Source: a virus (taxonomy: Duplodnaviria > Heunggongvirae > Uroviricota > Caudoviricetes). Taken from it: a stretch of 20,421 bases of DNA. The DNA is taken from IMG/VR virus record IMGVR_UViG_2654587509_000002, one strand, 5' to 3'. Positions 60-19,168 of this stretch are shown piece after piece (position 1 is the stretch's first letter; every line of letters starts with the position of its first letter). The position numbers and the translations under genes were made by a program. The notes beneath the pieces were generated by a model. That model saw only the letters and a program-made list of their open reading frames with translations, was not told the origin of the DNA and ran no database searches.

Positions 60-302
60 GTATTTCCCCGATACCTTGTGTGCAAATTGCATCAGATAGT
101 TGATAGCCTTTTGTTTGTCGTTCTGGCTGAGTTCGTGCTTACCACAGAATGCAGCCATTCCGAATCCGGCTTGTGATTGCGCCATCCCCATAGCAGCCAT
201 CACATCAGTACCGGAAAGAGAGTCAGAAGCCGTAGCCCGTGGTGAGTCGCTCATCATCGGGCTTTTTGGCGAATGAAATTTAGCTACGCTTTCGAGTCTC
301 AT
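57..302 (-). pseudogene. Q: Late antiterminator Q, N-terminal 81 codons only, truncated at the IS629 junction
   Basis: Translation [28 protein letters not shown]...KVSGKY matches the lambda Q N-terminus as I recall it; the frame runs into the IS terminus and stops at TGA 57-59. Full-length Q is about 207 aa. Confidence 0.85.
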
Positions 303-964
303 GCGCCTTCTCCCTGTACCTGAATCAATGTGAGGTTTCCGCAGAACACTGCGCCGGTATCGATATACATCTGGTTGGCAAACTTGAGTGGTTTCACTGC
401 TGGCGTATGACCAAAGATGAACGTGTCCGCACCTTTGATTTCTTTCACGATCCCGTCTTGTGAGTTGCTGATTCGTTCGCGGTTCCAGATTACCTGCTGA
501 TGATCAACTGGTTTTCCAAACTCGTATTCGTCACAAGGATAATCGGCGTGGCAGATGACATATTTTTTATCTTTGCTCACCAGTTCGATGATTAACGGAA
601 GTTCATCTGCTTTATGGGCAAGAGCTTTAGCCAGAATTTCTTTGTCGTAATCGAGATTAAAGAACCATCCACCGCCATTAAGCAGCCAGTGATTAACGTT
701 TCCACGCTCTGATAAGCCATCAATCATCATTTGCTCATGGTTTCCACGTACAGCTCTGAACCAGGGGAATGTGATTAATTCCAGGCATTCGACGTTCTCT
801 GCACCACGATCAACCAAATCGCCCACCGAGATAAGCAGGTCTTTTTTGTTGTCGAATCCAATCGTATCCAGTTTGTTCATCAGGTTCGTGTAGCATCCGT
901 GCAGATCGCCAACTACCCAAATATTTCGGTATTTGCTGCCATCAATTTTTTCGTAATAGCGCAT
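299..964 (-). CDS. ninI: Ser/Thr protein phosphatase (lambda NinI / orf221 type)
   Basis: 221 aa from [24 protein letters not shown] with GDLVDRG and GNHE metallophosphatase motifs; the 246-aa ORF is trimmed to the internal ATG at 964. Confidence 0.9.
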
Positions 965-1148
965 CTCTTTCACTCCATCCGCGATGAACCATAAGAACAT
1001 CGTTGACGATGGCGTGCATTTTCCCGTCTTTATCATCAACGTATTTTCTGACCGTACCGCGACTACATTTCAGTCTGCGTGCTACTTCTGTCTGGTTTCC
1101 GTATGCTTCAACGAGCATGTCTGGAATGGTTTTTACTGAGAACGTCAT
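942..1148 (-). CDS. ninH: NinH
   Basis: 68 aa [33 protein letters not shown]..., matching lambda NinH in length and sequence as recalled; overlaps the ninI start. Confidence 0.85.
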
Positions 1149-1756
1149 GCGGCCTCACTTCTGCTATTTCGCAGGTCTTTGAGTTTCTGTTGGTACTCTG
1201 CCTTGATCGCCTTGCACTCTTCGACAGTCCAGCGATGGCGGCTATGGTTTGATTCGATTTCGTCTACTGCTTCCTGCCCGATGCGGTTAATCAGTTCGAC
1301 GCGATACGGAACGAGATTTCCGCTTTTGTGCTGGTTGCACACCACGCATTGCTTGTGAATATTGCGTTCATCAAATCGGAGTTGAGGTGCCGCAGCAGTT
1401 GTCCGGTAATGTCCGGCATCCCACTGAGCAGACGTGAGCGTTCCGCACGAGATACATGGTAAGTCGCGGTCTCTTTCTCTGATGAAGGCGTTTACAGCTT
1501 GTTGGGCTTGTTTAATCCAGTAACTGCGGGGCTTTAAGGCGAGTTTTCGAATCTTCAGTTTATCTTTCTGTTTCTGCTCCTCTCGTCGTCGTTTCTTCTC
1601 TGCTGCTTTTTCCGCTTTTTCGCGTTCTTTGCTTCGTCGTTCCAGTGCTATCTTTGTTCCACACTCTGGAGAGCACCACCACTGATTAGCGAATGCAGGG
1701 TGAAACCATTCCCGACATTCTTCGTTTTTACATCGTCTTCGCGCTTGTTTAGCCAT
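1145..1756 (-). CDS. ninG: NinG (Rap) recombination endonuclease
   Basis: 203 aa; Cys-rich N-terminus (CKNEEC...CSPEC) and a basic coiled region; length and position as in lambda ninG. Confidence 0.85.
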
Positions 1757-2025
1757 TATGGTTCGCTCCAGTAATTCTCAATTGCAGCAGCCATTCTCTG
1801 CATCCACTCTGCCAGCTTTAACGCGGCTTCTCTTTCAGAACCACATTTAGGGAAATCCTTCATTTCCATGCTGGCCTTATATGTTCTGAATGCCAGGTCT
1901 CCGGTAATAACCAGCTCCTGATCAAGCACCGAGCGTTTATTCCGGTGTTGAACGTAATAGACAGATTCAGTCCGCATTTCTTCTCTGTCTTTTTTGAAGG
2001 AAATAAGCTCAGAGAAATCACTCAT
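1756..2025 (-). CDS. Hypothetical protein, 89 aa, nin region
   Basis: Intact ORF filling the gap between ninF and ninG with 1-nt and 8-nt overlaps to its neighbours; no counterpart recalled in lambda. Confidence 0.5.
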
Positions 2026-2194
2026 CGTCTTCTTCCTCGTACATTGAGCTATTCGGATCGCTCATCAGTTCTGCGCAGCAGTGCTCACACACATGAACTT
2101 CCAGCACATGCAGCTTCTGACCGCAGTTAGCGCACGTTAAAGCCCGCTCGACGCTTTCTTTCTGGTATTGAAGAGATTGGGATGGGCTAAGCAT
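2018..2194 (-). CDS. ninF: NinF-like small zinc-finger protein
   Basis: Hand translation from ATG at 2194: [44 protein letters not shown]..., 58 aa with a CxxC...CxxC motif; below the 60-aa ORF-track cutoff. Confidence 0.7.
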   Translation of the reverse strand: MLSPSQSLQYQKESVERALTCANCGQKLHVLEVHVCEHCCAELMSDPNSSMYEEEDDE

Positions 2195-2546
2195 TATTGG
2201 CGTCCTGCATCATGAGAAAGACAATCATGGCGGCGCGGAGGGAATTTTCATGTATAGCTCGCTTAGATTTACAGTCGGCCACACCACGTGCACCCCACTC
2301 GTCTTCATCGAGATTGATGATGCTAATCCTGTACTTCTCAATAATCGGCCATGAGGCGCTAGGATCATTGCAGTAGTCAGGCAAAGGGTTTAATGGCTCA
2401 AAAGTTGTATCAGCATTTCCGTAATACCATTTGTTGGTGTTATTCCCTGATGTTTCCGGTTTACATGCCCAAAGGCCTTTAAAAATTATGTCTCCTACCA
2501 TTCTGTTAATTTCAAAATCACTTAACTGTGAATAATCCATTGTCAT
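2187..2546 (-). CDS. Hypothetical protein, 119 aa, nin region
   Basis: ORF with ATGA overlap to the ninE stop (start [15 protein letters not shown]...); no confident family assignment. Confidence 0.5.
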
Positions 2547-2719
2547 TTCCTCGCACGATGTCTTAGCCACCGGATATCCCACAGGTGAGCCGTGTAATTG
2601 AAGGTTTTTACGTCAGATTCTTTTGGGATTGGCTTGCGTTTATTTCTGGAGCGTTTCGTTGGAAGGTATTTGCAGTTTTCGCAGATGATGTCGGTGATAC
2701 TTCGTCGCTGTCGTCTCAT
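2543..2719 (-). CDS. ninE: NinE
   Basis: 58 aa [58 protein letters not shown], recalled as lambda NinE; internal start within the 88-aa ORF. Confidence 0.75.
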
Positions 2720-3243
2720 GCCGCCCTCCTGACGCCCTGCCCGATCGCCATCAATGCCGCTTTGGATACGGTAGTAAACATCCGTCGAGGACTGATGAAC
2801 GGTCGCCAAATCAGCAGCATGGAACCTTTGCTGTTTCCCTTCTTCTCCAGCCCTGTCGATGGTTCGATAAAATTAATCCGTCCATCAGTGATAATACGAA
2901 CTTCGTCAACACTCTCCAGAGCCTTGCTGAACCATCCGACAGACATATCCTCTGGCACAAGCATCACTACCGTCTGTCGCTGTTGTATGCACTGCTCAGC
3001 GGCTTTTTCCACCCACGGCCTGATATTGCTGTACGGTGGGTTATTCCAGATTGCACCGTGGCTTACCCACTCAGAATTGAGCGCGTCGTCGGCCTCAGTT
3101 AACCAGTGAGCGCACAGAGCATTTTTGTCGCTCGCTGCCGAATCCAGCCAGAATCCAAACTCAATATCCAGTGCATCAAAAAGCCAAAGCGGCGTTTGCC
3201 AGCAGTCCTTGTCGTGTGCTGGCGTATTTGATTTGATAGTCAT
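2716..3243 (-). CDS. Phage Dam-type DNA N6-adenine methyltransferase
   Basis: 175 aa from [31 protein letters not shown]...; NPPY catalytic motif (AIWNNPPYS); occupies the lambda ninC position; ATGA overlap with the ninB stop. Confidence 0.8.
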
Positions 3244-3680
3244 GCAGCCCGATCTCCCCATCTCGCTTTCCACTCCAGAGCCAGTCTCGCTTCGTCTGAC
3301 CACTTAACGCCACGCTCTGTACCGAATGCCTGTATAAGCTCTAATAGCTCCGCAAATTCGCCTACACGCATCCTGCTGGTTGACTGGCCTATTACCACAA
3401 AGCCATTCCCGGCAAGGTTAGGAACAACATCCTGCTGCTTTAATGCTGCGGTAAACACACACTTCCAGCTTTCTGCATCCAGCCAGCGACCATGCCATTC
3501 AACCTGACGAGAGACGTCACCTAAGCAGGCCCATAGCTTCCTATTTTGGTCTAAGCTGCGGTTGCGTTCCTGAATGGTTACTACGATTGGTTTGGTTGGG
3601 TCTGGAAGGATTTGCTGTACTGCGTGAATAGCGTTTTGCTGATGTGCTGGAGATCGAATTTCAAAGGTTAGTTTTTTCAT
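3240..3680 (-). CDS. ninB: NinB (Orf) recombination mediator
   Basis: 146 aa from MKKLTFEIRSPAHQQNAIHAVQQILPDPTKP...; matches lambda NinB as recalled. Confidence 0.9.
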   Translation of the reverse strand: MKKLTFEIRSPAHQQNAIHAVQQILPDPTKPIVVTIQERNRSLDQNRKLWACLGDVSRQVEWHGRWLDAESWKCVFTAALKQQDVVPNLAGNGFVVIGQSTSRMRVGEFAELLELIQAFGTERGVKWSDEARLALEWKARWGDRAA

Positions 3681-3696
3681 GACTTCCCTCTCCCCC

Positions 3697-3727
3697 AAAT
3701 AAAAAGGCCTGCGATTACCAGCAGGCC
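3697..3727 (-). terminator. Rho-independent terminator at the tR2 position, between ren and ninB
   Basis: Minus-strand transcript forms stem GGCCUGC / loop / GCAGGCC (3706-3727) followed by a U-run (plus-strand A-run 3697-3705). Confidence 0.6.
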
Positions 3728-3753
3728 TGTTATTAGCTCAGTAATGTAGATGG

Positions 3754-4044
3754 TCATCTTTTAACTCCATATACCGCCAATACCCGTTTCATCGCGGCAC
3801 TCTGGCGACACTCCTTAAAAATCAGGTTCGTGCTCATCTTTCCTTCCCGTTCTTCCCTGGTAGCAAACCGGTAATACACCGTTCGCCAGACCTTACCTTC
3901 GATAACCAGAAGACCTGCCCGTGCCATTTTAGCCGCGGCCTGATTTATGCTGGTTACTGTTGCGCCTGTTAGCGCGGCAACGTCCGGCGCACAGAAGCTA
4001 TTATGCGTCCCCAGGTAATGAATAATTGCCTCTTTGCCCGTCAT
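3754..4044 (-). CDS. ren: Ren
   Basis: 96 aa MTGKEAIIHYLGTHNSFCAPDVAALTG...; length and sequence as recalled for lambda Ren; directly downstream of P. Confidence 0.85.
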   Translation of the reverse strand: MTGKEAIIHYLGTHNSFCAPDVAALTGATVTSINQAAAKMARAGLLVIEGKVWRTVYYRFATREEREGKMSTNLIFKECRQSAAMKRVLAVYGVKR

Positions 4045-4742
4045 ACACTTGCTCCTTTCAGTCCGAACTTAGCTTTAATTTCTGCGATCTTCGCCAGAGC
4101 CTGTGCACGATTTAGAGGTCTACCGCCCATAACAGGAAGTTGTTTTACTGGTTCAGGTATCGTCTCACCACGGTTAATTCGCGCTGTCATACAGGTCAGT
4201 TCATCGGCAGCCTTGCGCCGTAATTCCGCATCAGTAAGCGCATTGGCCCGCATGTTCTGATACAGGTTGGTAACCAGCCAGTAGTGCGCGTTTGATTTCC
4301 ACGGATAAGACTCCGCATCCGGATACAGGCCTCGCTTCCGGCAATACTCGTAAACCATATCAACCAGCTCGCTGACGTTTGGCAGTCCGGCGATAACGGA
4401 TGCTTCTTCCCGGCACCATGCAACAAACTGCCCGGGTGATGGCAGAAATGGTCGATTCTGCCGACGGGCTACGCGCATTCCTGCGTTAACCTGTTCCATC
4501 GTGGTGATCCCGTTTTCCCGAAAAGCCAGAACCCACTGGCGACGGATTTCGTTCACTTCGTTCTGGTCACGGTTAGCCAGGCTCGCCGGGAAAGTTGCCA
4601 GTAACTGGCTGAACACACCGTTGATGATCTGCGCTACCTGCTGTACCTGCGGCTTTTCGTCGTACTGTTCCGGCATGTTGTTGGCGATCCGACGCATCTG
4701 CTCACGGTCAAAGTTAACCATCTGTGCGGCGATGTTTTTCAT
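4041..4742 (-). CDS. P: Replication protein P (DnaB helicase loader)
   Basis: 233 aa MKNIAAQMVNFDREQMRRIANNMPEQYDEKPQ...; lambda P length; ATGA overlap with O. Confidence 0.95.
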   Translation of the reverse strand: MKNIAAQMVNFDREQMRRIANNMPEQYDEKPQVQQVAQIINGVFSQLLATFPASLANRDQNEVNEIRRQWVLAFRENGITTMEQVNAGMRVARRQNRPFLPSPGQFVAWCREEASVIAGLPNVSELVDMVYEYCRKRGLYPDAESYPWKSNAHYWLVTNLYQNMRANALTDAELRRKAADELTCMTARINRGETIPEPVKQLPVMGGRPLNRAQALAKIAEIKAKFGLKGASV

Positions 4743-5638
4743 AGATCCACCCCGTAAATCCAGTCTGTGTTTGTCAGGTCGAGTTTTGGTTTGCTGGCTG
4801 TCACGACTGCCTGTTGCTTGTTACGGTTGATTTCGAGCTGGGTCCACTTGTCGCGGAGTTTGGCCGGACTAAGCACGTTACCGGACCAGAAGTTGTCCTG
4901 GCATGCCCAGCGGAACAGCACGCACATGTCGCGGTGGTTACGTCCGTCACGTTCACGCATCAGGCGGATATCGTTAGCCCACCCTGCAAAATTCGGTTTT
5001 CTGGCTGATGGCGCGATGGTCTTCACCATGTCAAACATCCACTCTGCGGCGGTCAGGTCTTCTGCTGTCCCCCACTTGCTGCCGCTCTGAATTGCAGCAT
5101 CCGGTTTCACCACAGAAAGATCGTTTTCTGGCTGGTCAGAGGATTCGCCAGAATTCTCTGACGAATAATCTTTTCTTTTTTCTTTTGTAATAGTGTCTTT
5201 TGTGTCCCTCTGTTTTGAGGGATAGCAATCCCCCAATTTGAGGGATGTTTTATCCCTCGTTTTAGGGGATTTTCCCTCGTTTTGAGGGATACACCATTCT
5301 GAGATGTTTTTATTTGGTCCAAACATGCCGCCTTGCTGCTTGATAATATTCATTCTGACGAGTTCTAACTTGGCTTCATTGCACCGTTTGACGGGTAACT
5401 TTGTAATCTCGCTAAGTTGAGAATCGGTGACTCTGTCCATTGGTTTATTCCACCCATAGGTTTTACGCAGAATGGCAAGCAGCACTTTAAACTGTCGCTT
5501 GGTCAGATCTGCGCCCGAATAAGCCTCAAGCAGCATATTTGATAGTCTGGCGTAACCATCATCGAGATCTGCCACATTACGCTCCTGTCCGGCAAAGTTA
5601 CCTCTGCCGAAGTTGAGTATTTTTGCTGTATTTGTCAT
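4739..5638 (-). CDS. O: Replication initiator O
   Basis: 299 aa MTNTAKILNFGRGNFAGQERNVADLDD...; contains the origin iterons internally, as in lambda. Confidence 0.95.
   Translation of the reverse strand: MTNTAKILNFGRGNFAGQERNVADLDDGYARLSNMLLEAYSGADLTKRQFKVLLAILRKTYGWNKPMDRVTDSQLSEITKLPVKRCNEAKLELVRMNIIKQQGGMFGPNKNISEWCIPQNEGKSPKTRDKTSLKLGDCYPSKQRDTKDTITKEKRKDYSSENSGESSDQPENDLSVVKPDAAIQSGSKWGTAEDLTAAEWMFDMVKTIAPSARKPNFAGWANDIRLMRERDGRNHRDMCVLFRWACQDNFWSGNVLSPAKLRDKWTQLEINRNKQQAVVTASKPKLDLTNTDWIYGVDL
5165..5290. repeat. Lambda-type replication origin: four 19-bp iterons plus the adjacent AT-rich tract, inside O
   Basis: Four spaced copies of tccctc-N7-gagggat between about 5206 and 5290 (for example tccctctgttttgagggat, ttccctcgttttgagggat) and the A/T tract ttttcttttttcttttgtaatag at 5166-5192. 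Confidence 0.85.
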
Positions 5639-5670
5639 AATGACTCCTGTTGATAGATCCAGTAATGACC

Positions 5671-5964
5671 TCAGAACTCCATCTGGATTTGTTCAGAACG
5701 CTCGGTTGCCGCCGGGCGTTTTTTATTGGTGAGAATCGCAGCAACTTGTCGCGCCAATCGAGCCATGTCGTCGTCAACGACCCCCCATTCAAGAACAGCA
5801 AGCAGCATTGAGAACTTTGGAATCCAGTCCCTCTTCCACCTGCTGATCTGCGACTTATCAACGCCCACAGCTTCCGCTGTCTTCTCAGTTCCAAGCATTG
5901 CGATTTTGTTAAGCAACGCACTCTCGATTCGTAGAGCCTCGTTGCGTTTGTTTGCACGAACCAT
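5671..5964 (-). CDS. cII: Transcriptional activator cII
   Basis: 97 aa MVRANKRNEALRIESALLNKIAMLGTEKTAEAVGVDKSQISRWKRDWIPKF...; internal start of the 117-aa ORF. Confidence 0.95.
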   Translation of the reverse strand: MVRANKRNEALRIESALLNKIAMLGTEKTAEAVGVDKSQISRWKRDWIPKFSMLLAVLEWGVVDDDMARLARQVAAILTNKKRPAATERSEQIQMEF

Positions 5965-6043
5965 ATGTAAGTATTTCCTTAGATAACAATTGATTGAATG
6001 TATGCAAATAAATGCATACACCATAGGTGTGGTTTAATTTGAT

Positions 6044-6075
6044 GCCCTTTTTCAGGGCTGGGATGTGTAAGAGCG
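6044..6075 (-). promoter_or_regulatory. nutR (boxA and boxB) N-utilisation site
   Basis: On the minus strand, boxA CGCTCTTAC (plus 6067-6075) precedes the boxB hairpin GCCCTGAAAAAGGGC (plus 6044-6058), between cro and cII. Confidence 0.75.
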
Positions 6076-6083
6076 GGAATATC

Positions 6084-7439
<1,356 letters not shown>

Positions 7440-7489
7440 TCCCCACCTCAATCTCGATAACCAAAAAACAAACTATTTTCCGTTTAAAA

Positions 7490-7558
7490 ACAATGGAGTT
7501 TGTTTTTCATGCCCCTTTTTTACAATATTTCTTGTTTACAACATACAATCTTTCTTGT
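7490..7558. promoter_or_regulatory. Left operator (three 434-type 14-bp sites) with the pL region
   Basis: ACAATGGAGTTTGT (7490-7503), ACAATATTTCTTGT (7522-7535) and ACAATCTTTCTTGT (7545-7558), each ACAA-N6-TTGT, with the same spacing as OR. Confidence 0.75.
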
Positions 7559-7604
7559 AATTTTAAGCCATCAGCAGGACGCACTGACCACCATTGAAGG
7601 TGAT

Positions 7605-7634
7605 GCTCTTAAAAATTAAGCCCTGAAGAAGGGC
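7605..7634 (+). promoter_or_regulatory. nutL (boxA-like and boxB)
   Basis: GCTCTTAAA (7605-7613) followed by the boxB hairpin GCCCTGAAGAAGGGC (7620-7634), upstream of N. Confidence 0.8.
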
Positions 7635-7792
7635 AGCATTCAAAGCAGAAGGCTTTGGGGTGTGTGATACGAAACGAAGCATTGGCCGGAAGTGCGAATC
7701 CGGATTAGCTGCAAATGAGCCAATCGTGGGGTGTTTTCGTTCAGGACTACGACTCACACACACCACCAAAGCTAACTGACAAGAGAATCCAG

Positions 7793-8116
7793 ATGGATGC
7801 ACAAACACGCCGCCGCGAACGTCGCGCAGAGAAACAGGCTCAATGGAAAGTAGCAAATCCCCTGTTGGTTGGGGTAAGCGCAAAACCAGTTAACCGCCCT
7901 ATTCTCTCGCTGAATCGCAAACCGAAATCACGAGTAGAAAGCGCACTGAATCCGATAGACCTTACAGTGCTGGCTGAATACCACGAACAGATTGAAAGCA
8001 ACCTGCAACGTATTGAGCGCAAGAATCAGCGCACATGGTACAGCAAGCCTGGCGAACGCGGCATAACATGCAGTGGACGCCAGAAAATTAAGGGAAAATC
8101 GATTCCTCTTACCTAG
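7793..8116 (+). CDS. N: Antitermination protein N
   Basis: 107 aa MDAQTRRRERRAEKQAQWK...; arginine-rich motif at the N-terminus; lambda N length; the ORF-track 5' extension is rejected. Confidence 0.95.
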   Translation: MDAQTRRRERRAEKQAQWKVANPLLVGVSAKPVNRPILSLNRKPKSRVESALNPIDLTVLAEYHEQIESNLQRIERKNQRTWYSKPGERGITCSGRQKIKGKSIPLT

Positions 8117-8671
8117 TTACTTAGATATTGGCCTTGGCTTTATCTCAATATTATATGGATCATAGCTGGCAACTAATTCAGTCCAGTAAATATCCTCAAT
8201 AGGGAATAATATATGCTTCCCGTTCCATCGGGAAAAAGTTTTGTTCAACACACCAAGCTCAATCAACTCACTAATGTATGGGAATTGTTTTGATGTAACC
8301 ACATACTTCCTGCCTTCATTAAGGGCTGCGCACAAAACCATAGATTGCTCTTCTGTAAGGTTTTGAATTACCGATCGCACTTTATCGTTTTGCATCTTAA
8401 TGCGTTTTCTTAGCTTAAATCGCTTATATTTGGCGCTGGCAATAGCTGATAATCGATGCACATTAATTGCTAGCGAAAATGCAAGAGCAAAGACGAAAAC
8501 ATGCCACACATGAGGAATACCGATTCTCTCATTAACATATTCAGGCCAGTTATCTGGGCTTAAAAGCAGAAGTCCAACCCAGATAACGATCATATACATG
8601 GTTCTCTCCAGAGGTTCATTACTGAACACTCGTCCGAGAATAACGAGTGGATCCATTTCTATACTCATCAA
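8117..8671 (-). CDS. sieB: Superinfection exclusion protein B (SieB)
   Basis: 184 aa MMSIEMDPLVILGRVFSNEPLERTMYMIVIWVGLLLL... with hydrophobic segments; transcribed opposite to N, as in lambda. Confidence 0.8.
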   Translation of the reverse strand: MMSIEMDPLVILGRVFSNEPLERTMYMIVIWVGLLLLSPDNWPEYVNERIGIPHVWHVFVFALAFSLAINVHRLSAIASAKYKRFKLRKRIKMQNDKVRSVIQNLTEEQSMVLCAALNEGRKYVVTSKQFPYISELIELGVLNKTFSRWNGKHILFPIEDIYWTELVASYDPYNIEIKPRPISK

Positions 8672-8795
8672 ACTGTAGGGGTTGTAATAGTTTATCCGAT
8701 TTCTCGCTGTAGGGGTACACGAGAACCACCGAGCCTGATGTGGTTAAAAGACAGGCACAATCTTTACTACCGCAATCCACTATTTAAGGTGATAT

Positions 8796-8882
8796 ATGGA
8801 AGAAGAATTTGAAGAGTTCGAAGAGCATCCGCAGGATGTAATGGAACAGTACCAGGACTATCCGTATGACTACGACTATTGA
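8796..8882 (+). CDS. Small acidic ORF (lambda orf28-like), 28 aa
   Basis: Hand translation MEEEFEEFEEHPQDVMEQYQDYPYDYDY; overlaps the ral start; below the ORF-track size cutoff. Confidence 0.5.
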   Translation: MEEEFEEFEEHPQDVMEQYQDYPYDYDY

Positions 8883-9045
8883 TAAGAATCAATGGTGTGG
8901 ACAATTCAAGCGATGCAATGGATGCAAGCTGCAATCGGAATGCATGGTTAAGCCTGAAGAAATGTTTCCTGTAATAGAAGATGGGAAATATGTCGATAAA
9001 TGGGCAATACGAACGACGGCAATGATTGCCAGAGAACTTGGTTAA
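8866..9045 (+). CDS. ral: Restriction alleviation protein Ral, apparently shortened by 7 residues
   Basis: Hand translation MTTTIDKNQWCGQFKRCNGCKLQSECMVKPEEMFPVIEDGKYVDKWAIRTTAMIARELG then TAA; the in-frame continuation QNNKAA-TGA resembles the lambda Ral C-terminus as recalled. Confidence 0.8.
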   Translation: MTTTIDKNQWCGQFKRCNGCKLQSECMVKPEEMFPVIEDGKYVDKWAIRTTAMIARELG

Positions 9046-9165
9046 CAGAACAACAAAGCTGCCTGATAGTGGCCTTTATTTTTGGCATAAATAACAGAAT
9101 AAACACTGCACTGAACCGCCCCGGGAATCCTGGAGACTAAACTCCCTGAGAAAGAGGTAAACAGG

Positions 9166-9492
9166 ATGACTAAAAATACTCGTTTTTCCCCTGAAGTCCG
9201 TCAACGGGCAGCCCGTATGGTTCTGGAAAGTCAGGGCGAATATGACTCACAATGGGCGACAATTTGTTCCATTGCTCCAAAGATTGGCTGTACGCCGGAG
9301 ACTCTGCGTGTCTGGGTTCGCCAGCATGAGCGGGATACCGGGGGCGGTGATGGAGGGCTCACCACCGCTGAACGTCAGCGTCTGAAAGAGCTGGAGCGTG
9401 AAAATCGTGAACTGCGCCGCAGTAACGATATCCTTCGCCAGGCTTCCGCTTATTTTGCGAAGGCGGAGTTCGACCGCCTCTGGAAAAAATAA
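9166..9492 (+). CDS. IS629 transposase OrfA (HTH and leucine-zipper subunit)
   Basis: 108 aa [55 protein letters not shown]...; ends in an A6 run just before orfB. Confidence 0.9.
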
Positions 9493-10379
9493 TGCCGCTG
9501 CTGGATAAGCTGCGTGAGCAGTACGGGGTCGGACCGCTATGCAGCGAACTGCATATTGCCCCGTCAACGTATTACCACTGTCAGCAACAGCGACATCATC
9601 CGGATAAACGCAGTGCCCGTGCGCAGCGCGATGACTGGCTGAAGAAAGAGATACAGCGCGTATACGATGAAAATCACAAGGTATACGGTGTGCGTAAAGT
9701 CTGGCGTCAGTTGTTACGGGAAGGAATCAGAGTGGCCAGATGCACTGTGGCACGTCTCATGGCGGTTATGGGACTTGCCGGTGTTCTCCGGGGTAAAAAG
9801 GTCCGCACTACCGTCAGCCGGAAAGCCGTTGCCGCATGCGACCGCGTAAACCGTCAGTTCGTGGCAGAACGTCCAGACCAGTTGTGGGTGGCTGATTTTA
9901 CCTGGGTAAGCACATGGCAGGGCTTCGTTTATGTGGCGTTCATCATTGATGTGTTCGCCGGATACATCGTGGGATGGCAGGTCTCATCATCCATGGAAAC
10001 AACATTCGTGCTGGATGCACTGGAGCAGGCGTTGTGGGCCCGTCGGCCGTCCGGCACAATCCATCACAGTGATAAAGGTTCTCAGTATGTATCGCTGGCC
10101 TACACGCAGCGGCTTAAGGAAGCCGGATTACTGGCATCAACAGGGAGTACTGGCGACTCGTATGACAACGCGATGGCGGAGAGCATCAATGGTCTTTACA
10201 AAGCGGAGGTAATACACCGTAAGAGCTGGAAAAACCGTGCAGAAGTGGAACTGGCCACACTCACGTGGGTGGACTGGTATAACAATCGACGATTGCTGGA
10301 AAGGCTGGGCCATACTCCCCCGGCAGAAGCAGAAAAAGCTTATTATGCTTCCATCGGAAACGATGATCTGGCAGCCTGA
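9492..10379 (+). CDS. IS629 transposase OrfB (DDE catalytic domain), normally expressed as an OrfAB fusion by -1 frameshift
   Basis: 295 aa, in the -1 frame relative to orfA and overlapping its stop; IS3-family integrase-core motifs (HSDKGSQY..., ...ESINGLYKAE). Confidence 0.9.
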   Translation: MPLLDKLREQYGVGPLCSELHIAPSTYYHCQQQRHHPDKRSARAQRDDWLKKEIQRVYDENHKVYGVRKVWRQLLREGIRVARCTVARLMAVMGLAGVLRGKKVRTTVSRKAVAACDRVNRQFVAERPDQLWVADFTWVSTWQGFVYVAFIIDVFAGYIVGWQVSSSMETTFVLDALEQALWARRPSGTIHHSDKGSQYVSLAYTQRLKEAGLLASTGSTGDSYDNAMAESINGLYKAEVIHRKSWKNRAEVELATLTWVDWYNNRRLLERLGHTPPAEAEKAYYASIGNDDLAA

Positions 10380-10421
10380 GTTCACAGATAAAACACTCTC
10401 CAGGAAACCCGGGGCGGTTCA

Positions 10422-11497: not shown

Positions 11498-11539
11498 GTT
11501 CACAGATAAAACACTCTCCAGGAAAACCGGGGCGGTTCA

Positions 11540-11953
11540 GGGCTGTATTCCAATGCCACGTTGACAGATGCTGACCCTCAGGCAATTGAAGATGCCATTA
11601 ATGACCTCGAAGACATGATGGCAGCATGGCAGGCTAAAGGTATCGAGCTTGGATATCAGTTTGCTGATACAGAAAACGGCATCATGCCGTTACCTGACGA
11701 TGATTCAGGTATCCCTGCGTGGGCAAATGATGGCGTCGCTTTGAAGCTCGCTGTGCAAGTGTGCATGGATAACGTCATTCAGCCGTCAGATGCTCTCCTT
11801 ACCGCTGCTGACAGCGCATATCAGACAATCTGCATCGCTTTAACCAAAATACCACCACTTGAGCGGCGAAATGACATGCCTCGCGGTAGTGGTAACAAAA
11901 GCGCGTTTACGTGGAATCGGTTTTACATCGAGAAAGATGATCCAAGTACGTGA
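11540..11953 (+). pseudogene. gp4: P22-like gene 4 (head completion / tail accessory protein), 5'-truncated by IS629
   Basis: Frame is open from the IS boundary (GLYSNATLTDADPQAIEDAINDLEDMMAAW...), 137 codons remaining; no start codon with a ribosome-binding site; followed by gene 10 as in P22. Confidence 0.7.
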
Positions 11954-11962
11954 GGTGAATAA

Positions 11963-12067
11963 ATGCCGATTCAGCAACTTCCGCTTATGAAAGGTGTCGG
12001 CAAAGACTTTCGAAACGCCGACTATATCGACTATCTGCCAGTGAATATGCTGGCAATTTTGATATAA
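11963..12067 (+). pseudogene. Orphaned 5' fragment of P22-like gene 10 (34 codons)
   Basis: GAGGTGA ribosome-binding site then [34 protein letters not shown]-stop; first 31 residues are homologous to the start of the intact gene 10 at 12636 ([31 protein letters not shown]). Confidence 0.7.
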
Positions 12068-12103
12068 TAAGTACATGAAAAATCGAAACTTTAAGGAGTA
12101 GAT

Positions 12104-12688
12104 ATGCTTTCTGAGAATGCTAAAGATATACCTGGATTTGAAGGTGTTTATGCCGTAACAGAAGATGGCAGGGTATATTCTCACTCACGTGTTGTTAAGG
12201 CTGCGCATGGCAGCACGCAACTCAGAAAGGGGCGCTGGTTAAAGCCTAAAATCAATCAGGGAAGGGTGCTTTATAATATCGGAGCAAAATGGACTTTTGC
12301 CCATCGAATCGTTGCAATGACATTCCTGCCAAATCCTGAAAACAAGCCTCAGGTAAATCATATTGATGGCAATCCACTCAATAATAACGTCAATAATCTT
12401 GAGTGGTGCACTCAAAGCGAAAACATCAAACATGCATACGCCACCGGATTAAAGAAACCAATCAAGTTTTTCGGAACCAAGCACCCAAAACACAAGTTGA
12501 GTGATGACGATGTTCTTGCAATCAAGTCATCAAAAGAAAGCTTGTCAGTAATTGCGGCTAAGTACGGGATATCTAAGACCTGGGCAAGTAGGCTAAAGCG
12601 TGATGCTAACTGGGTTCATATAAAGGTTGATTCCAATGGCAATACAACAACTACCACTAATGAAGGGATTGGGGAAAAGTGCGGTTAA
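12104..12688 (+). CDS. HNH homing-endonuclease-like protein (NUMOD4-like N-terminus plus HNH motif)
   Basis: 194 aa; AAGGAG ribosome-binding site; GFEGVYAVTEDGRVYS (NUMOD4-like), HRIVAMTF...VNHIDGNPLNNNVNNLEWCTQSENIKHA (HNH); AT-rich; 3' end overlaps the gene 10 start. Confidence 0.8.
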   Translation: MLSENAKDIPGFEGVYAVTEDGRVYSHSRVVKAAHGSTQLRKGRWLKPKINQGRVLYNIGAKWTFAHRIVAMTFLPNPENKPQVNHIDGNPLNNNVNNLEWCTQSENIKHAYATGLKKPIKFFGTKHPKHKLSDDDVLAIKSSKESLSVIAAKYGISKTWASRLKRDANWVHIKVDSNGNTTTTTNEGIGEKCG

Positions 12689-14054
12689 TGCTGATTATAT
12701 AGACCAACTTCCAGTCAATCTTTTAGCTACGCCCAAGGAGGTGTTGAATTCATCGGGATATCTTCGCTCATTCCCGGGCATTGCCAAACGTTCTGATGTG
12801 AACGGCGTATCGCGAGGCGTCGAGTACAACATGGCGCAGAGTGCTGTTTATCGCGTGTGTGGTGGCAAGCTGTACAAAGGAGAAAGTGAAGTTGGTGATG
12901 TTGCCGGAAGTGGTCGCGTATCAATGGCACATGGTCGGACATCACAGGCGGTAGGCGTTAATGGTCAACTGGTCGAATACCGCTATGATGGCACGGTTAA
13001 AACCGTCTCAAACTGGCCTACGGACAGCGGATTCACGCAGTATGAGTTAGGTTCGGTCCGTGACATTACGCGTTTACGTGGGCGTTATGCGTGGTCAAAA
13101 GACGGTACTGATTCATGGTTTATCACTGACCTTGAAGACGAATCGCATCCTGACCGCTACAGCGCACAATATCGGGCAGAATCGCAGCCGGACGGTATCA
13201 TCGGCATCGGAACATGGCGAGATTTCATCGTCTGCTTTGGTTCATCGACGATTGAATATTTTTCCCTGACTGGTGCAACCACCGTTGGTGCCGCTTTGTA
13301 TGTCGCACAGCCATCACTAATGGTGCAAAAAGGAATCGCCGGGACTTACTGCAAAACGCCATTCTCTGATTCATATGCGTTCATCAGCAATCCGGCAACA
13401 GGTGCGCCGTCTGTGTACATCATCGGCTCCGGTCAGGTGTCACCAATCGCCAGTGCGAGCATTGAGAAAATCCTCCGCTCCTACACTGCTGATGAACTGG
13501 CTGATGGCGTGATGGAATCGTTGCGGTTTGATGCTCATGAGTTGCTGATTATCCATCTTCCGCGTCACGTCCTCGTGTACGACGCATCTTCAAGCGCCAA
13601 TGGTCCGCAATGGTGTGTGCTTAAAACAGGCCTGTATGACGATGTGTACCGCGCTATCGACTTCATTTACGAAGGCAATCAGATAACGTGCGGCGATAAG
13701 CTGGAATCGGTGACCGGGAAATTGCAGTTCGATATCAGCAGTCAGTATGGGCTTCAACAGGAACACCTTCTGTTTACTCCGTTGTTCAAAGCGGATAACG
13801 CCAGATGCTTCGATCTGGAGGTGGAATCGTCCACTGGCGTAGCTCAGTACGCCGACCGCCTGTTCCTCTCTGCGACCACTGACGGCATAAATTACGGTCG
13901 TGAGCAGATGATTGAGCAGAATGAACCGTTCGTTTACGACAAACGCGTTTTGTGGAAGCGAGTCGGGCGCATCAGGAAAAATGTCGGCTTCAAATTGCGC
14001 GTTATCACGAAGTCACCTGTCACTCTGTCTGGCTGCCAGATAAGGATTGAGTAA
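12636..14054 (+). CDS. gp10: P22-like gene 10 tail accessory factor
   Basis: 472 aa from ATG 12636, the same length as P22 gp10; position between genes 4 and 26. Confidence 0.8.
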
Positions 14055-14755
14055 TGGCTGATTCGAATCTCAACACCCCTGTTATTGTGCAGGCGACGCG
14101 GCTCGATACATCAATCCTTCCACGCAATATATTCAGCCAGTCTTACCTGCTGTATGTCATTAATCAGGGGGCTGATGTCGGCGCAATTGCCGGGAAGGCA
14201 AATCAGGCTGGTCAGGGCGCTTACGATGCTCAGGTGAAAAACGATGAACAGGACGTCGAACTGGCTGATCACGACGCAAGAATCACCGCAAACACAAAAG
14301 CGATAAATCTACTTGAGGTCAGGTTAACAACTGCCGAAGGGAAGATAGTCGTACTGCGTAGCGATGTTGATTACTTGCTGGATGAGGTTATCGATATTCA
14401 GGCGCATCTGGTCACTGTTGACCAAAGACTGGATGACGTAGAAAACGATGTCTCTGGCATTAAGAGTGATTACGTATCGAAAACCGTAACCGAATTGCAG
14501 TCTCTTGAGTCACCGCTGGATGTAAAAACATCATATTCAGTTGATGGAATTCAGGTTGTTGGAGCAAGAAATACCGGATGGACTGCAGCCACAGGTACGC
14601 CACTTCTTGGCTCATTCAACGCTAACCAGTCATACACTGTCGGCACTACGTACACACAATCCGAAGTCGCAGCTCTCGCTACAGGTTTGCAGCAGGCGCG
14701 GCAGCGTATTCTGGCGCTTGAAACGGCACTTAGATTACATGGGCTGATTGACTGA
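14054..14755 (+). CDS. gp26: P22-like gene 26 tail needle
   Basis: 233 aa [36 protein letters not shown]... with a heptad-rich coiled core and C-terminal ...[14 protein letters not shown], as recalled for P22 gp26. Confidence 0.85.
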
Positions 14756-15210
14756 TGATTACATTCAAACCAACGCGAAACATCGACCTGATAGAAGCAG
14801 TCGGAAATCACCCTGACATTATCGCCGGGAGCAACAACGGCGATGGATACGACTACAAACCTGAATGCCGTTACTTTGAGGTGAGCGTGCACGGGCAGTT
14901 CGGCGGCATTGTTTACTATCAGGAGATTCAGCCGCTGACATTCGATTGCCACGCCATGTACCTGCCAGAGGTTCGTGGATTCAGCAAGGAAATCGGTCTG
15001 GCGTTCTGGCGATACATTCTGACTAACACCACCGTTCAGTGCGTCACATCGTTCGCTGCACGCAAATTCCGCCACGGGCAGATGTACTGCGCAATGATTG
15101 GCCTTAAGCGTGTAGGAACCATCAAGAAATACTTCAAAGGCGTGGATGACGTGACTTTTTACAGTGCTACACGCGAAGAACTAATCGAATTCCTGAATCA
15201 CGGGAGATAG
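14755..15210 (+). CDS. gp14: P22-like gene 14 protein
   Basis: 151 aa; synteny between gene 26 and gene 7; ATGA-type overlap with the gene 26 stop. Confidence 0.7.
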   Translation: MITFKPTRNIDLIEAVGNHPDIIAGSNNGDGYDYKPECRYFEVSVHGQFGGIVYYQEIQPLTFDCHAMYLPEVRGFSKEIGLAFWRYILTNTTVQCVTSFAARKFRHGQMYCAMIGLKRVGTIKKYFKGVDDVTFYSATREELIEFLNHGR

Positions 15211-15212
15211 CC

Positions 15213-15905
15213 ATGTTATATGCATTTAAGCTGGGCAGAAAACTGCGCGGCGAGGAACCTTATTGCCATGAAAAAGGCGGGAAAGGTGGCAGCTCTGATA
15301 AAAGCGCAAAGTATGCAGCAGAAGCTCAGAAGTATGCCGCAGACCTGCAAAATCAGCAGTTCAACACCATCATGAACAACCTGAAACCGTTTACTCCTCT
15401 GGCTGAGAAGTATGTCGGCAGCCTCGAGAACTTATCGTCTCTGGAGGGGCAAGGTCAGGCGCTTAACCAGTATTACAACTCTCAGCAGTATAAAGACCTT
15501 GCAGGTCAGGCTCGCTATCAGAGTCTGGCTGCAGCGGAAGCAACAGGTGGATTGGGTTCCACCGCAACCAGTAATCAGTTAGCAACAATCGCACCAACGC
15601 TTGGTCAGCAATGGCTATCTGGTCAGATGAACAACTACCAGAATCTGGCAAATGTTGGTCTTGGCGCACTGCAAGGTCAGGCAAACGCCGGGCAGACATA
15701 TGCCAACAACATGAGTCAGATTTCTCAGCAAAGTGCGGCTCTTGCAGCGGCAAATGCCAACAGACCATCAGCAATGCAATCTGCTATTGGCGGAGGTGCG
15801 TCTGGTGCTATTGCTGGGGCTGGACTTGCGAAATTAATTGGTTCATCCACTCCGTGGGGGGCTGCGATCGGCGGCGGTCTTGGTCTGCTTGGCTCGTTGT
15901 TTTAA
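15213..15905 (+). CDS. gp7: P22-like gene 7 ejection (internal virion) protein
   Basis: 230 aa MLYAFKLGRKLRGEEPYC...; Q/N/A-rich with a Gly-rich hydrophobic C-terminus; length and order as P22 gp7. Confidence 0.8.
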   Translation: MLYAFKLGRKLRGEEPYCHEKGGKGGSSDKSAKYAAEAQKYAADLQNQQFNTIMNNLKPFTPLAEKYVGSLENLSSLEGQGQALNQYYNSQQYKDLAGQARYQSLAAAEATGGLGSTATSNQLATIAPTLGQQWLSGQMNNYQNLANVGLGALQGQANAGQTYANNMSQISQQSAALAAANANRPSAMQSAIGGGASGAIAGAGLAKLIGSSTPWGAAIGGGLGLLGSLF

Positions 15906-15914
15906 GGGGTAATC

Positions 15915-17330
15915 ATGGCTACGTGGCAACATGGTATTAATTCTGGTGGTTTTCTGGCTGGCATCGGTACGCAAAATGAGAATGCGCCAAAGGCAAGCGA
16001 CATTAACGCAACGCTTGGTCTGATCCGCGAAAACAATGAGTTGGCTCGCTCAGGTGCAAATAACGTTGGTCTGACCGCGTTACGTGGTCTGGCTGGAGTT
16101 GCTGATATTTACAATCAGGAACAGCAACAGAAAGCGATTAGTGCGTTCAATAAGGTTCACGCTGATGCATGGGCTTCTGGTGATCCATCGGGACTATTTA
16201 AGTTTGCCCAGGAAAATCCAGCGTTTGTTGCACAGGCACAACAGGCGTTTTCTGGTCTTAATGATCAGCAACGCAACGATATGGGCGATTTAGCCATGAG
16301 GGCTAACGTCGCTCTTTCTCAGGGACCGGAAGCCTACAGTAAATTCATTACTGACAACAAGGACAGGTTAAATCGCGTTGGTGCTAATGCTGACTGGATG
16401 ATTCAGACAGGTATCCAGAATCCAGAGCAGCTATCACACATGCTGACTACTATGTCTCTCGGTGCGCTTGGACCAGAAAAGGCGTTTGCTGTTCAGGATA
16501 AGATGGCTGGTCGTGAAATTGACCGAGGCAGGCTGGCAGAGACAATCCGCAGCAATCAGGCTGGTGAAGCACTTCAGGCGAGAGGGCAAAACCTTTCCTA
16601 TCAGTCAGCAATGACTGGGCACAATATCGCAGCACAACGCTTGGCTCTGGATCAGCAAGAGTTCGGGTTTAAGATGCAGCAAGCGCAGGAAAAGGCTCAG
16701 CAGTTGATTAGTGAAGCACCTAAGCTGTCAGTAAACATGGAAAAAGGCATCGAGACGGCTGTAAACAATGCCACAGCATCATCAAACTCAGCCAATTCTA
16801 TGAGTGCGCTTGCTCAACAGTTCAGAGCAGAAAAACCAACGACAGGTTTGTTCGGTAACGCACAGAACATGTTCGCAAAACTTACCGGAAGCGATACGAC
16901 ATTGCGTGATTTGCGCATCCGCCAAAATGCCCTTGTTAACAGTCAGGTTCTTAAATTCCTACCTCCCGGCCCAGCAACGGATAAAGACGTTGAGATCGTT
17001 CGGCAGGGTGCGCCAACTGACATGGATAACCCTGAGACGGTCGCAAGATGGCTTGATGCAATGGCAAACCTTGAGCGACGAAACGCGCAGTTTAATGAGT
17101 TTAAAGCTGAGTGGATGAGCGCGAATGGCAATCCTGGACAATCGCGTAATGGCGGTCAGATATTGGGGTTGGATGTTAAAAAAGGTGAATCATTGGGGAG
17201 TGCCGTTAAGCGGTATATGTCATTGAATACTGACGCAGCGCCAGCACAAGATTCGACACCTTCAGGAGAACCACGGAATCAGGTTGGATCATATACCTCA
17301 AAATCAGTCATTCAATTTACGGTGGAATGA
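15915..17330 (+). CDS. gp20: P22-like gene 20 ejection protein
   Basis: 471 aa, identical in length to P22 gp20; synteny. Confidence 0.8.
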
Positions 17331-19168
17331 TGAAAGTAACTGCAAACGGTAAGACATTTACCTTCCCTGATGGTACGAGCACGGAAGATATTGGAGCCGC
17401 CATTGATGATTATTTTGCTGGTCAGGTTGTTCAGCAACAAACAGTTAATCAGGCCAATAATGCACCAGTACGTGAAGAACCATCATTGATGCAACAAGCT
17501 GGCGATTGGCTCACTGGTGGTCAAAGTGCAGGGCAAATTGCAGAACAGGCTGGTCGTGGTCTGGTAAACATACCATTTGACGTATTGCAGGGTGGCGCAA
17601 GTCTGATTAATGCAATCAGTCAGGGGCTTGGTGGGCCAAAAGTTTTGGATGATGTTTATCGTCCAGTAGACAAACCGACAGACCCATACGCACAAGCCGG
17701 TGAAACAATTGGTGGGTATTTAGTTCCAGGAGTTGGAACGGCAGGAAGCATGGCTATTGGATCGCTGGCAGAGGCCGCAAATCAGAAAGGCGATTTCGCA
17801 CAAAATGCAGCTAAAAATGCCGGAGTTAACCTTGCCGCTCAGGGTGTTCTTTCCGCAGCAGCAAAGGGAATAGGGCGTGGAATAACGGCTATAAAAGGTG
17901 ATATTGCGCCAGAAGTGGCGAAGAAAATTGCCACATCAGAATCGATGGGCGTGACACCAATGACATCTGATGTTATCCCGCCGAAAAATGCTTTCACTCG
18001 CGGCCTTACTCAGGATGCCGAGGGGGCTTTGCTCGGGACGGGCTCAAAGCGAGCAGAGCAATATGCAACGCGGAGTAAGCTGGTAAGCAATTATTTTGAC
18101 CGTTTTGGTGAGTACAACCCTGATGATGTGGTGAAATCTCTGACCACCACGTTAAGGGGGCGGAAGGATGCCGCTGGCGCTGTTATCAATGACGTCACCA
18201 ATAAAATGGGTAATGCCGCAGTTGATACCACAAATACCATGAATGCTCTGAATACAGCGATCGCAAGACAGGAACGGCTTGGGACGTCTGCCAATCAAAG
18301 CCTGCTTACATCCTTGCGTAACCTACGTGAAGAATTAGCAAACCCTGCAACTGATTTGGATGTTACGTTTGATCTCTTGCGTCAGCACAGAACAGCATTT
18401 AGATCTAATGTTCAGGGAGATGCTATGGTCTTCCCCAACCAGGCAAAAGCAGCTACCAATATGGTAGAGAATGCAATGTCAAAAGACCTTCGTAACGCAG
18501 TTGCTAAAAACCTCGGTGCATCAGACGCAGCAAAATACCTTAAAGCAAATTCCGATTATGCAAACGTTTATAATAAGGTGCTTAATAAAAACATTGCCAA
18601 CAAGCTCAACAAGGCAAGCAGTGAAGCCAGTCCTGAACTTATAAATACCGTTGTATTAAGCAGAAAACCATCTGACGTGAAACGAATCTGGAGCGCACTG
18701 GATGATAAGGGGAAAGATGCTATGCGTGCAGCTTACGTCAGCAAAATAGCGGAAAAGGCCGGGGACTCTCCAGCCAAGTTCATCACTGAAGTTAATAAGC
18801 TGAAATCTCAGTCAGGCGGTGAAATTTACAACACTATTTTTTCTGGAAAGCACATGAAAGAGCTTGATGCTCTTCATGAAGTTCTACAGCAAACAGCAAG
18901 GTCAGACACCGCAAATGTAGTAACTCAGACGGGGCAATCGCAAGCCAACAGGATAAGGACGATTGGCGCAACTGCGACCCTTGGCGTATCAATGGGGCTT
19001 GAGGCTGGTTTTGGTGCAATGATGCGCTTGTATGAGTCCAAAGCAGCAAGGAATATGCTTCTTCGTTTGGCAAACACCAAAGCAGGAACACCAGCCTATG
19101 AAAGAGCGATAAATAACGCTGCGAATGCCATCAGACCGCTGTTTGCTACTGAGGCAACACAGCAGTAA
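17327..19168 (+). CDS. gp16: P22-like gene 16 ejection protein
   Basis: 613 aa (P22 gp16 is about 609 aa); ATGA overlap with gene 20; last gene of the ejection operon. Confidence 0.8.

Follow-up and report, generated by a model that had tools for sequence, protein, structure and literature searches.

Two small genes among the nin genes of a lambda/434-like prophage belong to known families and form independent cassettes absent from lambda

Introduction

In phage lambda, NinE, NinF and NinG follow one another without intervening genes. In the viral sequence IMGVR_UViG_2654587509_000002 (20,421 nt; hereafter, the window), two short open reading frames (ORFs), of 119 and 89 aa, are interleaved with these genes. 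A preliminary description of this DNA considered both ORFs to be unassigned operon members that might encode toxin, defence or recombination accessories. We thus ask here what these ORFs are, whether they are genuine genes, and whether they act together.

Results

Organization of the early region

The left 9 kb of the window corresponds to the rightward early operon of a lambda/434-like prophage, encoded on the minus strand. The larger ORF lies between ninE and ninF and the smaller between ninF and ninG, with the positions and lengths given in the preliminary description. The features of this region are:

8117-8671, minus strand: SieB, early region
4739-5638, minus strand: O, in the lambda/434-like early operon
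4041-4742, minus strand: P, early operon
3754-4044, minus strand: ren, early operon
3705-3728, between ren and NinB: tR2-like terminator, from the promoter and terminator scan
3240-3698, minus strand: NinB, early operon
2716-3243, minus strand: Dam-type N6-adenine methyltransferase (PF05869, E 9e-65)
2543-2719, minus strand: ninE, 58 aa (PF05322, E 2e-43; residues 31-88 of a long ORF)
2187-2546, minus strand: 119-aa ORF, assigned to ninX by its matches to PF10765 and PHROG 444, counted from the ATG overlapping the stop codon of NinE
2018-2194, minus strand: ninF, 58 aa (PF05810, E 1.8e-12; PHROG 672), separating the 119-aa and 89-aa ORFs
1756-2025, minus strand: conserved accessory gene of 89 aa (PHROG 1258)
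1145-1756, minus strand: ninG/rap, junction-specific endonuclease (PF05766, E 3.4e-90), downstream neighbour of the 89-aa gene
942-1148, minus strand: NinH, early operon
After NinH and before Q, minus strand: NinI phosphatase, from the gene order of the early operon
Left end of the window, minus strand: Q, first 81 codons only, from the gene order of the early operon

The best overall phage match of the early region was lambda imm434 (98.5% identity over 39% of the window, positions 60-9113), which suggests an immunity region of the 434 type. Within the same operon, the Dam-type methyltransferase gene takes the place of lambda NinC and NinD, a third cassette difference from lambda.

Assignment of the two ORFs to known families

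The product of the 119-aa ORF matched profile PF10765 (Phage_P22_NinX, formerly DUF2591) along its entire length (positions 1-114 of 114), with 55.1 bits (E 1.2e-14) against a curated gathering cut-off of 22.6 bits. It also matched PHROG 444 (E 6e-46) and the founding member of the family, NinX from phage P22 (46% identity, E 3e-24), and the gene order NinE-NinX-NinF found in the window is shared by phages P22, SPN9CC and ST64T. On these sequence matches, we identify this ORF as ninX. At 90% identity, the homologs of NinX fell into 463 clusters, most of which bear the name 'phage protein NinX family protein' or DUF2591, and NinX-like DNA was found in 1104 of 5426 complete Escherichia coli genomes (approximately 20%); NinX or DUF2591 is already the annotation in many phages and in the E. 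coli genomes listed.

Residues 2-89 of the smaller ORF matched PHROG 1258 (E 4.7e-38), with no matching Pfam family, and its deduced product was 100% identical to gp51 of phage mEp235 and to SPN9CC_0035. Both genes thus belong to known sequence families, and the previous label of unassigned was wrong. The family of the 89-aa protein is small: its members fell into 32 clusters at 90% identity, and a set of 1.84 billion proteins contained 67 representatives at the 50% level. The gene occurs in 20 phage records, with 98.5-98.9% DNA identity, and in 148 of the 5426 complete E. coli genomes (approximately 3%), being designated 'hypothetical protein' in every row shown.

A search for defence families with PADLOC returned no match for either ORF at E values up to 1; likewise, NCBIfam gave no informative match for either of them, and Pfam no catalytic or defence family. 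In the searchable literature, we came across no experimental study of NinX or of the 89-aa protein, nor any description of a biochemical activity for a member of the NinX family.

Conservation of the 89-aa gene

ORF length alone is weak evidence of coding capacity, because, per 20.4 kb, shuffled versions of the window yielded 5.5 ATG-initiated ORFs with a length of 89 aa or more and 1.0 with 119 aa or more. We thus examined the conservation of the 89-aa frame. Compared with mEp235 gp51, the gene showed four synonymous and no non-synonymous differences, and full-length relatives with 62-73% identity were present in Cronobacter, Yokenella, Rahnella, Enterobacter and Cedecea. In the comparison with the Cronobacter gene, synonymous sites were saturated (pS approximately 0.77), with pN of approximately 0.2; dN/dS between mEp235 gp51 and the Cronobacter gene was approximately 0.07. 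The position of the gene is also maintained, with the order NinE-x-NinX-NinF-[99 aa]-NinG in the Cronobacter prophage, NinB-NinX-NinE-[97 aa]-NinG in Yokenella and [98 aa]-NinG in Rahnella, which provides the conserved frame and synteny in other lambdoid prophages that the preliminary description had named as a check. From the conserved frame at this level of divergence, the few non-synonymous changes and the constant position, we infer that the 89-aa ORF is a real gene under strong purifying selection.

An out-of-frame ORF of 53 aa (1860-2021, minus strand) lies inside the 89-aa gene. The database entry P0021 carries this alternative frame as its N-terminus, joined to the true C-terminus of the 89-aa protein, and therefore represents a copy with a frameshift, as opposed to a variant protein.

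Start codons and coupling to the operon

As previously described, both ORFs overlap the start and stop codons of their neighbours. Direct reading of the junctions revealed that the NinE stop and the NinX start share an ATGA (2543-2546), the NinX stop and the NinF start an 8-nt overlap (ATGCTTAG, 2187-2194), and the NinF stop and the start of the 89-aa ORF a further 8-nt overlap (ATGAGTGA, 2018-2025), the last junction being a TAATG with a 1-nt overlap at position 1756 between the 89-aa ORF stop and the NinG start. The NinB/Dam and Dam/NinE junctions are likewise ATGA, so that ninE, immediately upstream of ninX, overlaps each of its neighbours through an ATGA. Compact gene arrangements with such overlaps have been reported for nin regions in general (PMC8022706).

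Initiation at the ATG at 2546 gives a NinX of 119 aa, and at an in-frame ATG at 2540 one of 117 aa; the mechanically longest ORF starts at a GTG at 2582 and has 131 aa. In the sequence GCGAGGAAATGACAATGG, the Shine-Dalgarno motif GAGGAA is 2 nt before the first ATG and 8 nt before the second. NinX may therefore start at 2540 instead of 2546, since the second ATG is better spaced and 117 aa is the commonest length among the close homolog clusters listed. In turn, the 89-aa ORF is preceded by GAGGAAG, 7 nt 5' of its ATG.

A promoter and terminator scan of the minus strand did not reveal promoter-like sites beyond chance in positions 1756-2600, nor were there terminators or Rfam matches beyond chance inside 1756-2546. 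From established knowledge of lambda and P22, both genes would be transcribed only within the pR delayed-early operon, with their translation coupled to that of NinE and NinF, and both would be dispensable for growth.

Two independent cassettes absent from lambda

The claim that lambda lacks counterparts of both ORFs was borne out by blastn comparisons, in which homology to lambda breaks at the ORF borders. Positions 2712-2546 matched NinE (97%) and 2160-2023 matched NinF (96%), the gap between them being unmatched, and positions 1759-60 matched lambda from NinG through Q (98.3%). Each flank of the 89-aa cassette can be aligned with lambda bases 42429-42434, and the ATG of the 89-aa gene occupies, within the 3' end of ninF, the site of the NinG ATG in lambda. 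These comparisons delimited two segments:

2161-2545, minus strand: cassette 1, ninX and the first approximately 11 codons of ninF, not in lambda
1760-2022, minus strand: cassette 2, body of the 89-aa gene, not in lambda

The G+C content was 42.5% for ninX and 44.1% for the 89-aa gene, with approximately 50% for the neighbouring genes. The first approximately 11 codons of ninF (2161-2194, minus strand), within the NinX cassette, showed no homology to lambda ninF; this 5' end apparently travels with ninX because the 8-nt overlap lies within it.

To examine linkage, we used 80 IMG/VR contigs carrying a near-identical copy of the 89-aa gene. NinX was present in only 27 of these loci, and mEp235 has the 89-aa gene and no NinX, leading us to reject the two ORFs as a linked pair. 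They are, instead, independent gene-sized mosaic cassettes, present here and absent from lambda.

Structure and within-gene mosaicism of NinX

The window NinX contains three Cys, four Trp and five Tyr, in agreement with the composition noted before, and has a pI of 4.62 and a net charge of -6. This acidity is general in the family, in which the median pI is 4.66, the median net charge -6 and the pI of 91% of members lower than 6; it argues against a classical nucleic-acid-binding surface.

Structure prediction, another check named in the preliminary description, was obtained for both proteins. The AlphaFold2 model of NinX, built from 37 sequences, was confident (pLDDT 90.3, pTM 0.85) and shows a helix (residues 8-19), an irregular segment of 40 residues with short strands and a second helix (60-69), followed by strands 73-78, 81-85 and 94-97 and a final helix (100-116). 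This arrangement is an alpha/beta sandwich, as in the solved proteins 1R7L and 4PUP, both of them structural-genomics entries with 13-14% sequence identity to NinX. The first is the Bacillus cereus prophage protein BC1872, reportedly published as 'a singleton with new fold', and the second is an uncharacterised protein from Burkholderia cenocepacia; we found no function for either in the searchable literature. Sequence searches of the PDB with both proteins and with the NinX profile gave no significant matches, the profile also failing to match 4PUP or 1R7L, and hits to RanBP2 and TMH4C4 (E 0.005-0.02) were dismissed as chance.

A weak sequence link to PDB entries 4PUP and 4QYB came from the NinX-like product of a divergent PF10765 gene (E 6.8e-12), located at approximately positions 3600-4261 of locus L129 (IMG/VR contig 3300011876_000016). 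The N-terminal motif of 4PUP (L.G..LDY.VA.A.G ... PS..W..GP.IE) is also present in this PF10765 member, and the fold of the NinX family has therefore probably been solved experimentally already. This gene is followed immediately by a distant relative of the 89-aa gene, the sole such adjacency among 80 loci of that distant subfamily.

Conserved columns of the NinX alignment cluster at residues 1-15, 55-72 and 101-111, and the two variable segments between them, V1 and V2, are swapped wholesale between alleles. The window gene showed 93-100% DNA identity to SPN9CC/ST64T-type alleles in its first two-thirds and 90-96% to IME10-type alleles in most of the last third, and appears from these identities to be a hybrid, with an N-terminal part of the SPN9CC type and a C-terminal part of the IME10 type. 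In the 99 homologs whose conserved anchors allowed a division into segments, V1 type 0 was paired with 31 types of V2, and V2 type 0 with 19 types of V1 (type 0 being that of the window allele), although these partner counts are inflated because the listed homologs were chosen for their similarity to the window allele. Notwithstanding this bias, the count shows that V1 and V2, as far as these alleles indicate, reassort freely at a conserved PDYCN.P..WPII joint. This reassortment could result from diversifying selection or from weak constraint.

Distribution and predicted structure of the 89-aa family

The model of the 89-aa protein, which is mildly acidic (pI 5.4), consists of a four-strand sheet and a helix, and returned no informative structural neighbours. 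A C-terminal helix motif beginning with FP was present in all relatives; residues S63-A68, L69, K70, A72, E73 and Q76-M78 were invariant in 13 sequences of the family, and K70, L71, W74 and R77 were at least 90% conserved in a distant set of 54 sequences. Invariant polar residues were few in both the NinX and the 89-aa families. A Pfam scan of the 54 distant relatives gave hits to Ead_Ea22 in two and to an Rv2179c-like domain in one (143 aa, with the two domains overlapping); these sporadic hits look like fusions with neighbouring genes and not like true architectures. NinY from P22, also considered as a relative, was unrelated by hhalign.

In the 80 contigs with near-identical copies, NinF was upstream of the 89-aa gene in 79, and the downstream gene encoded a DUF1364/YbcO-like product of 96 aa in 57 and NinG in 19. 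A distant subfamily (approximately 38% identical), with which the two relatives from Serratia share their placement, resides in another early region, beside genes for Ead/Ea22-like coiled-coil and small membrane proteins and with no resolvase nearby. Adjacency to a resolvase gene is therefore positional and not a family trait, ruling out the 89-aa gene as a constant companion of junction resolvases.

A scan of genome collections yielded only five loci, two of them in metagenome-assembled genomes (MAGs). Copies 100% identical to the 89-aa gene were present in two GTDB representative genomes, MAGs named 'Bacillota bacterium' and 'Collinsella sp.' (loci L169 and L170), whose contigs are most likely enterobacterial phage contigs that were mis-binned.

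Integrity of the prophage

Homology to lambda ends at window position 60 (lambda 44128), within Q. An IS3-family terminal repeat (TCTCCAGG...GGTTCA) was found four times (35-59, 9112-9136, 10397-10421 and 11515-11539), with none expected by chance, indicating that an IS end interrupts the Q antiterminator after approximately 81 codons. P22-like virion genes occupy positions 11561-19168 on the plus strand, rightward of the IS copies. The features of this part of the window are:

9166-9492 (OrfA) and 9492-10379 (OrfB): complete IS copy with an ALIL frameshift pseudoknot, next to a partial second copy
11561-11953, plus strand: 5'-truncated gp4-like tail accessory gene, P22-like
12104-12688, between gp4 and gp10: HNH/NUMOD4 homing-endonuclease-like ORF
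12627-14054, plus strand: gp10, P22-like
15915-17330, plus strand: injectosome translocase, P22-like

The direct joining of these virion genes to a lambda/434-like early region indicates an IS-mediated rearrangement. As IS copies flank the lambda-like early segment (60-9111) on both sides and Q is truncated, the prophage is probably defective, and expression of either ORF in the present host is thus doubtful.

Discussion

Taken together, our results show that both ORFs are genuine, catalogued accessory genes of the nin region, carried as independent cassettes, and our favoured reading, which we consider likely, is that they encode small non-enzymatic binders acting early. In favour of this reading are the lack of catalytic motifs and of enzyme or defence families in Pfam, NCBIfam and PADLOC, the scarcity of invariant polar residues, the acidity of the NinX family, the many pairings of V1 and V2 types and the hybrid nature of the window allele. 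Each product would be a small, mostly acidic alpha/beta protein without enzymatic activity, operating early in lytic growth through binding to another macromolecule, more likely a protein than a nucleic acid. In NinX, the three conserved helices would serve as a scaffold for V1 and V2, with their reassortment between alleles; the 89-aa protein would offer a four-strand sheet and a strongly conserved C-terminal helix. A P22 deletion spanning ninB-ninH gives viable phage (PMC11016777), indicating that P22 can do without NinX under laboratory conditions.

The most attractive specific version of this binder reading, which we consider possible albeit rather doubtful, is that, soon after infection, NinX, the 89-aa protein or both bind and neutralize a factor of the host, for instance an immunity protein. 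The reassortment of the NinX segments would then reflect an arms race. Such counter-defence or host takeover would suit delayed-early, dispensable, low-G+C cassettes coding for small acidic proteins, as well as the extensive reassortment of two segments on a conserved helical scaffold; however, neither sequence nor fold links them to known anti-defence proteins, the literature searched gives nothing in support, and the variability of NinX may just mean weak constraint. It is unlikely, in our opinion, that NinX is a modular binder whose conserved three-helix face docks on a constant phage or host component, the 89-aa protein possibly being a second, unrelated early inhibitor. V1 (residues approximately 16-54) and V2 (approximately 73-100) would then form a specificity surface that phages exchange through recombination at the conserved joint, and NinX would behave as expected of a determinant of counter-defence or host range engaged in an arms race. 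Quite improbable, in turn, is a role as recombination accessories, with the 89-aa protein modulating the downstream resolvase (NinG/Rap, or YbcO-like protein plus RusA) and NinX working with NinB/Orf. The 89-aa gene is indeed directly upstream of NinG or DUF1364-RusA in 76 of the 80 close loci, and adjacent to resolvase genes also in Cronobacter, Yokenella and Rahnella, but this carries little information because the nin order is conserved for all genes. Moreover, the approximately 38% identical subfamily lies away from resolvases, NinG of lambda and P22 works without the 89-aa protein, and the latter has an acidic pI and no DNA-binding or nuclease motif.

We consider it very improbable that either gene is a toxin, part of a toxin-antitoxin pair or a prophage defence module active in the lysogen, even though variable prophage loci, including the nin region, can in general carry such cargo and, in the record of mEp235, the 3' end of gp51 bears the annotation of a promoter-like sequence. 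That promoter would drive the next gene and not gp51, the start/stop overlaps tie both genes to the repressed pR operon, and the suggestion also conflicts with the lack of PADLOC matches and of promoter-like sites in the region, and with the absence of a conserved pair, the two genes co-occurring in a minority of loci with NinF between them. The chance that the ORFs are random and untranslated is negligible: the shuffled sequences do contain ORFs of this size, but conservation of the frame across genera with saturated synonymous sites, the Pfam and PHROG matches, the confident fold predicted for NinX, and the good Shine-Dalgarno sequences and coupled junctions exclude it as far as sequence analysis reaches. 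The view of both ORFs as true operon members thus stands, the smaller one on its frame conserved in other genera and the larger one on its PF10765 match.

Pfam or PHROGs, as well as public annotation, already include both genes, and the consequence for gene discovery is small; the outcome is correct labels for both ORFs and their recognition as independent cassettes and not a joint system. Reassortment of two NinX segments on a scaffold with a probably solved fold is mildly new, and makes NinX a reasonable and cheap candidate for functional study in P22.

Comparison with known systems

In phage P22 the genes are arranged as ninE-ninX-ninF-ninG, their ATGA and 8-nt overlaps match those of the window, and NinX is of the same size. 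P22 NinX carries, however, other versions of both variable segments, whereas the window allele combines N-terminal two-thirds of the ST64T/SPN9CC type with a C-terminal sheet of the IME10 type. In mEp235 and SPN9CC, the identical 89-aa protein (gp51 and SPN9CC_0035) also has NinF as its upstream neighbour, but the next genes encode a DUF1364/YbcO-like HNH protein and RusA; the window, with NinG, belongs to the minority arrangement (19 of 80 loci).

The folds of dsRNA-binding domains and ribosome hibernation factors gave low structural scores with NinX, in which there are an additional helix at the N-terminus and an insert of 40 residues. These domains use basic surfaces, unlike the acidic NinX family, and we do not place NinX among them.

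Morons in the classical sense come with a promoter and a terminator, whereas the ninX and 89-aa cassettes have neither and rely on operon transcription and on overlapping start and stop codons. Both genes resemble lambdoid mosaic cassettes in being gene-sized, with borders at start and stop codons and a G+C content below that of their flanks, and are present or absent independently among phages otherwise 96-98% identical, as in the mosaicism of nin regions.
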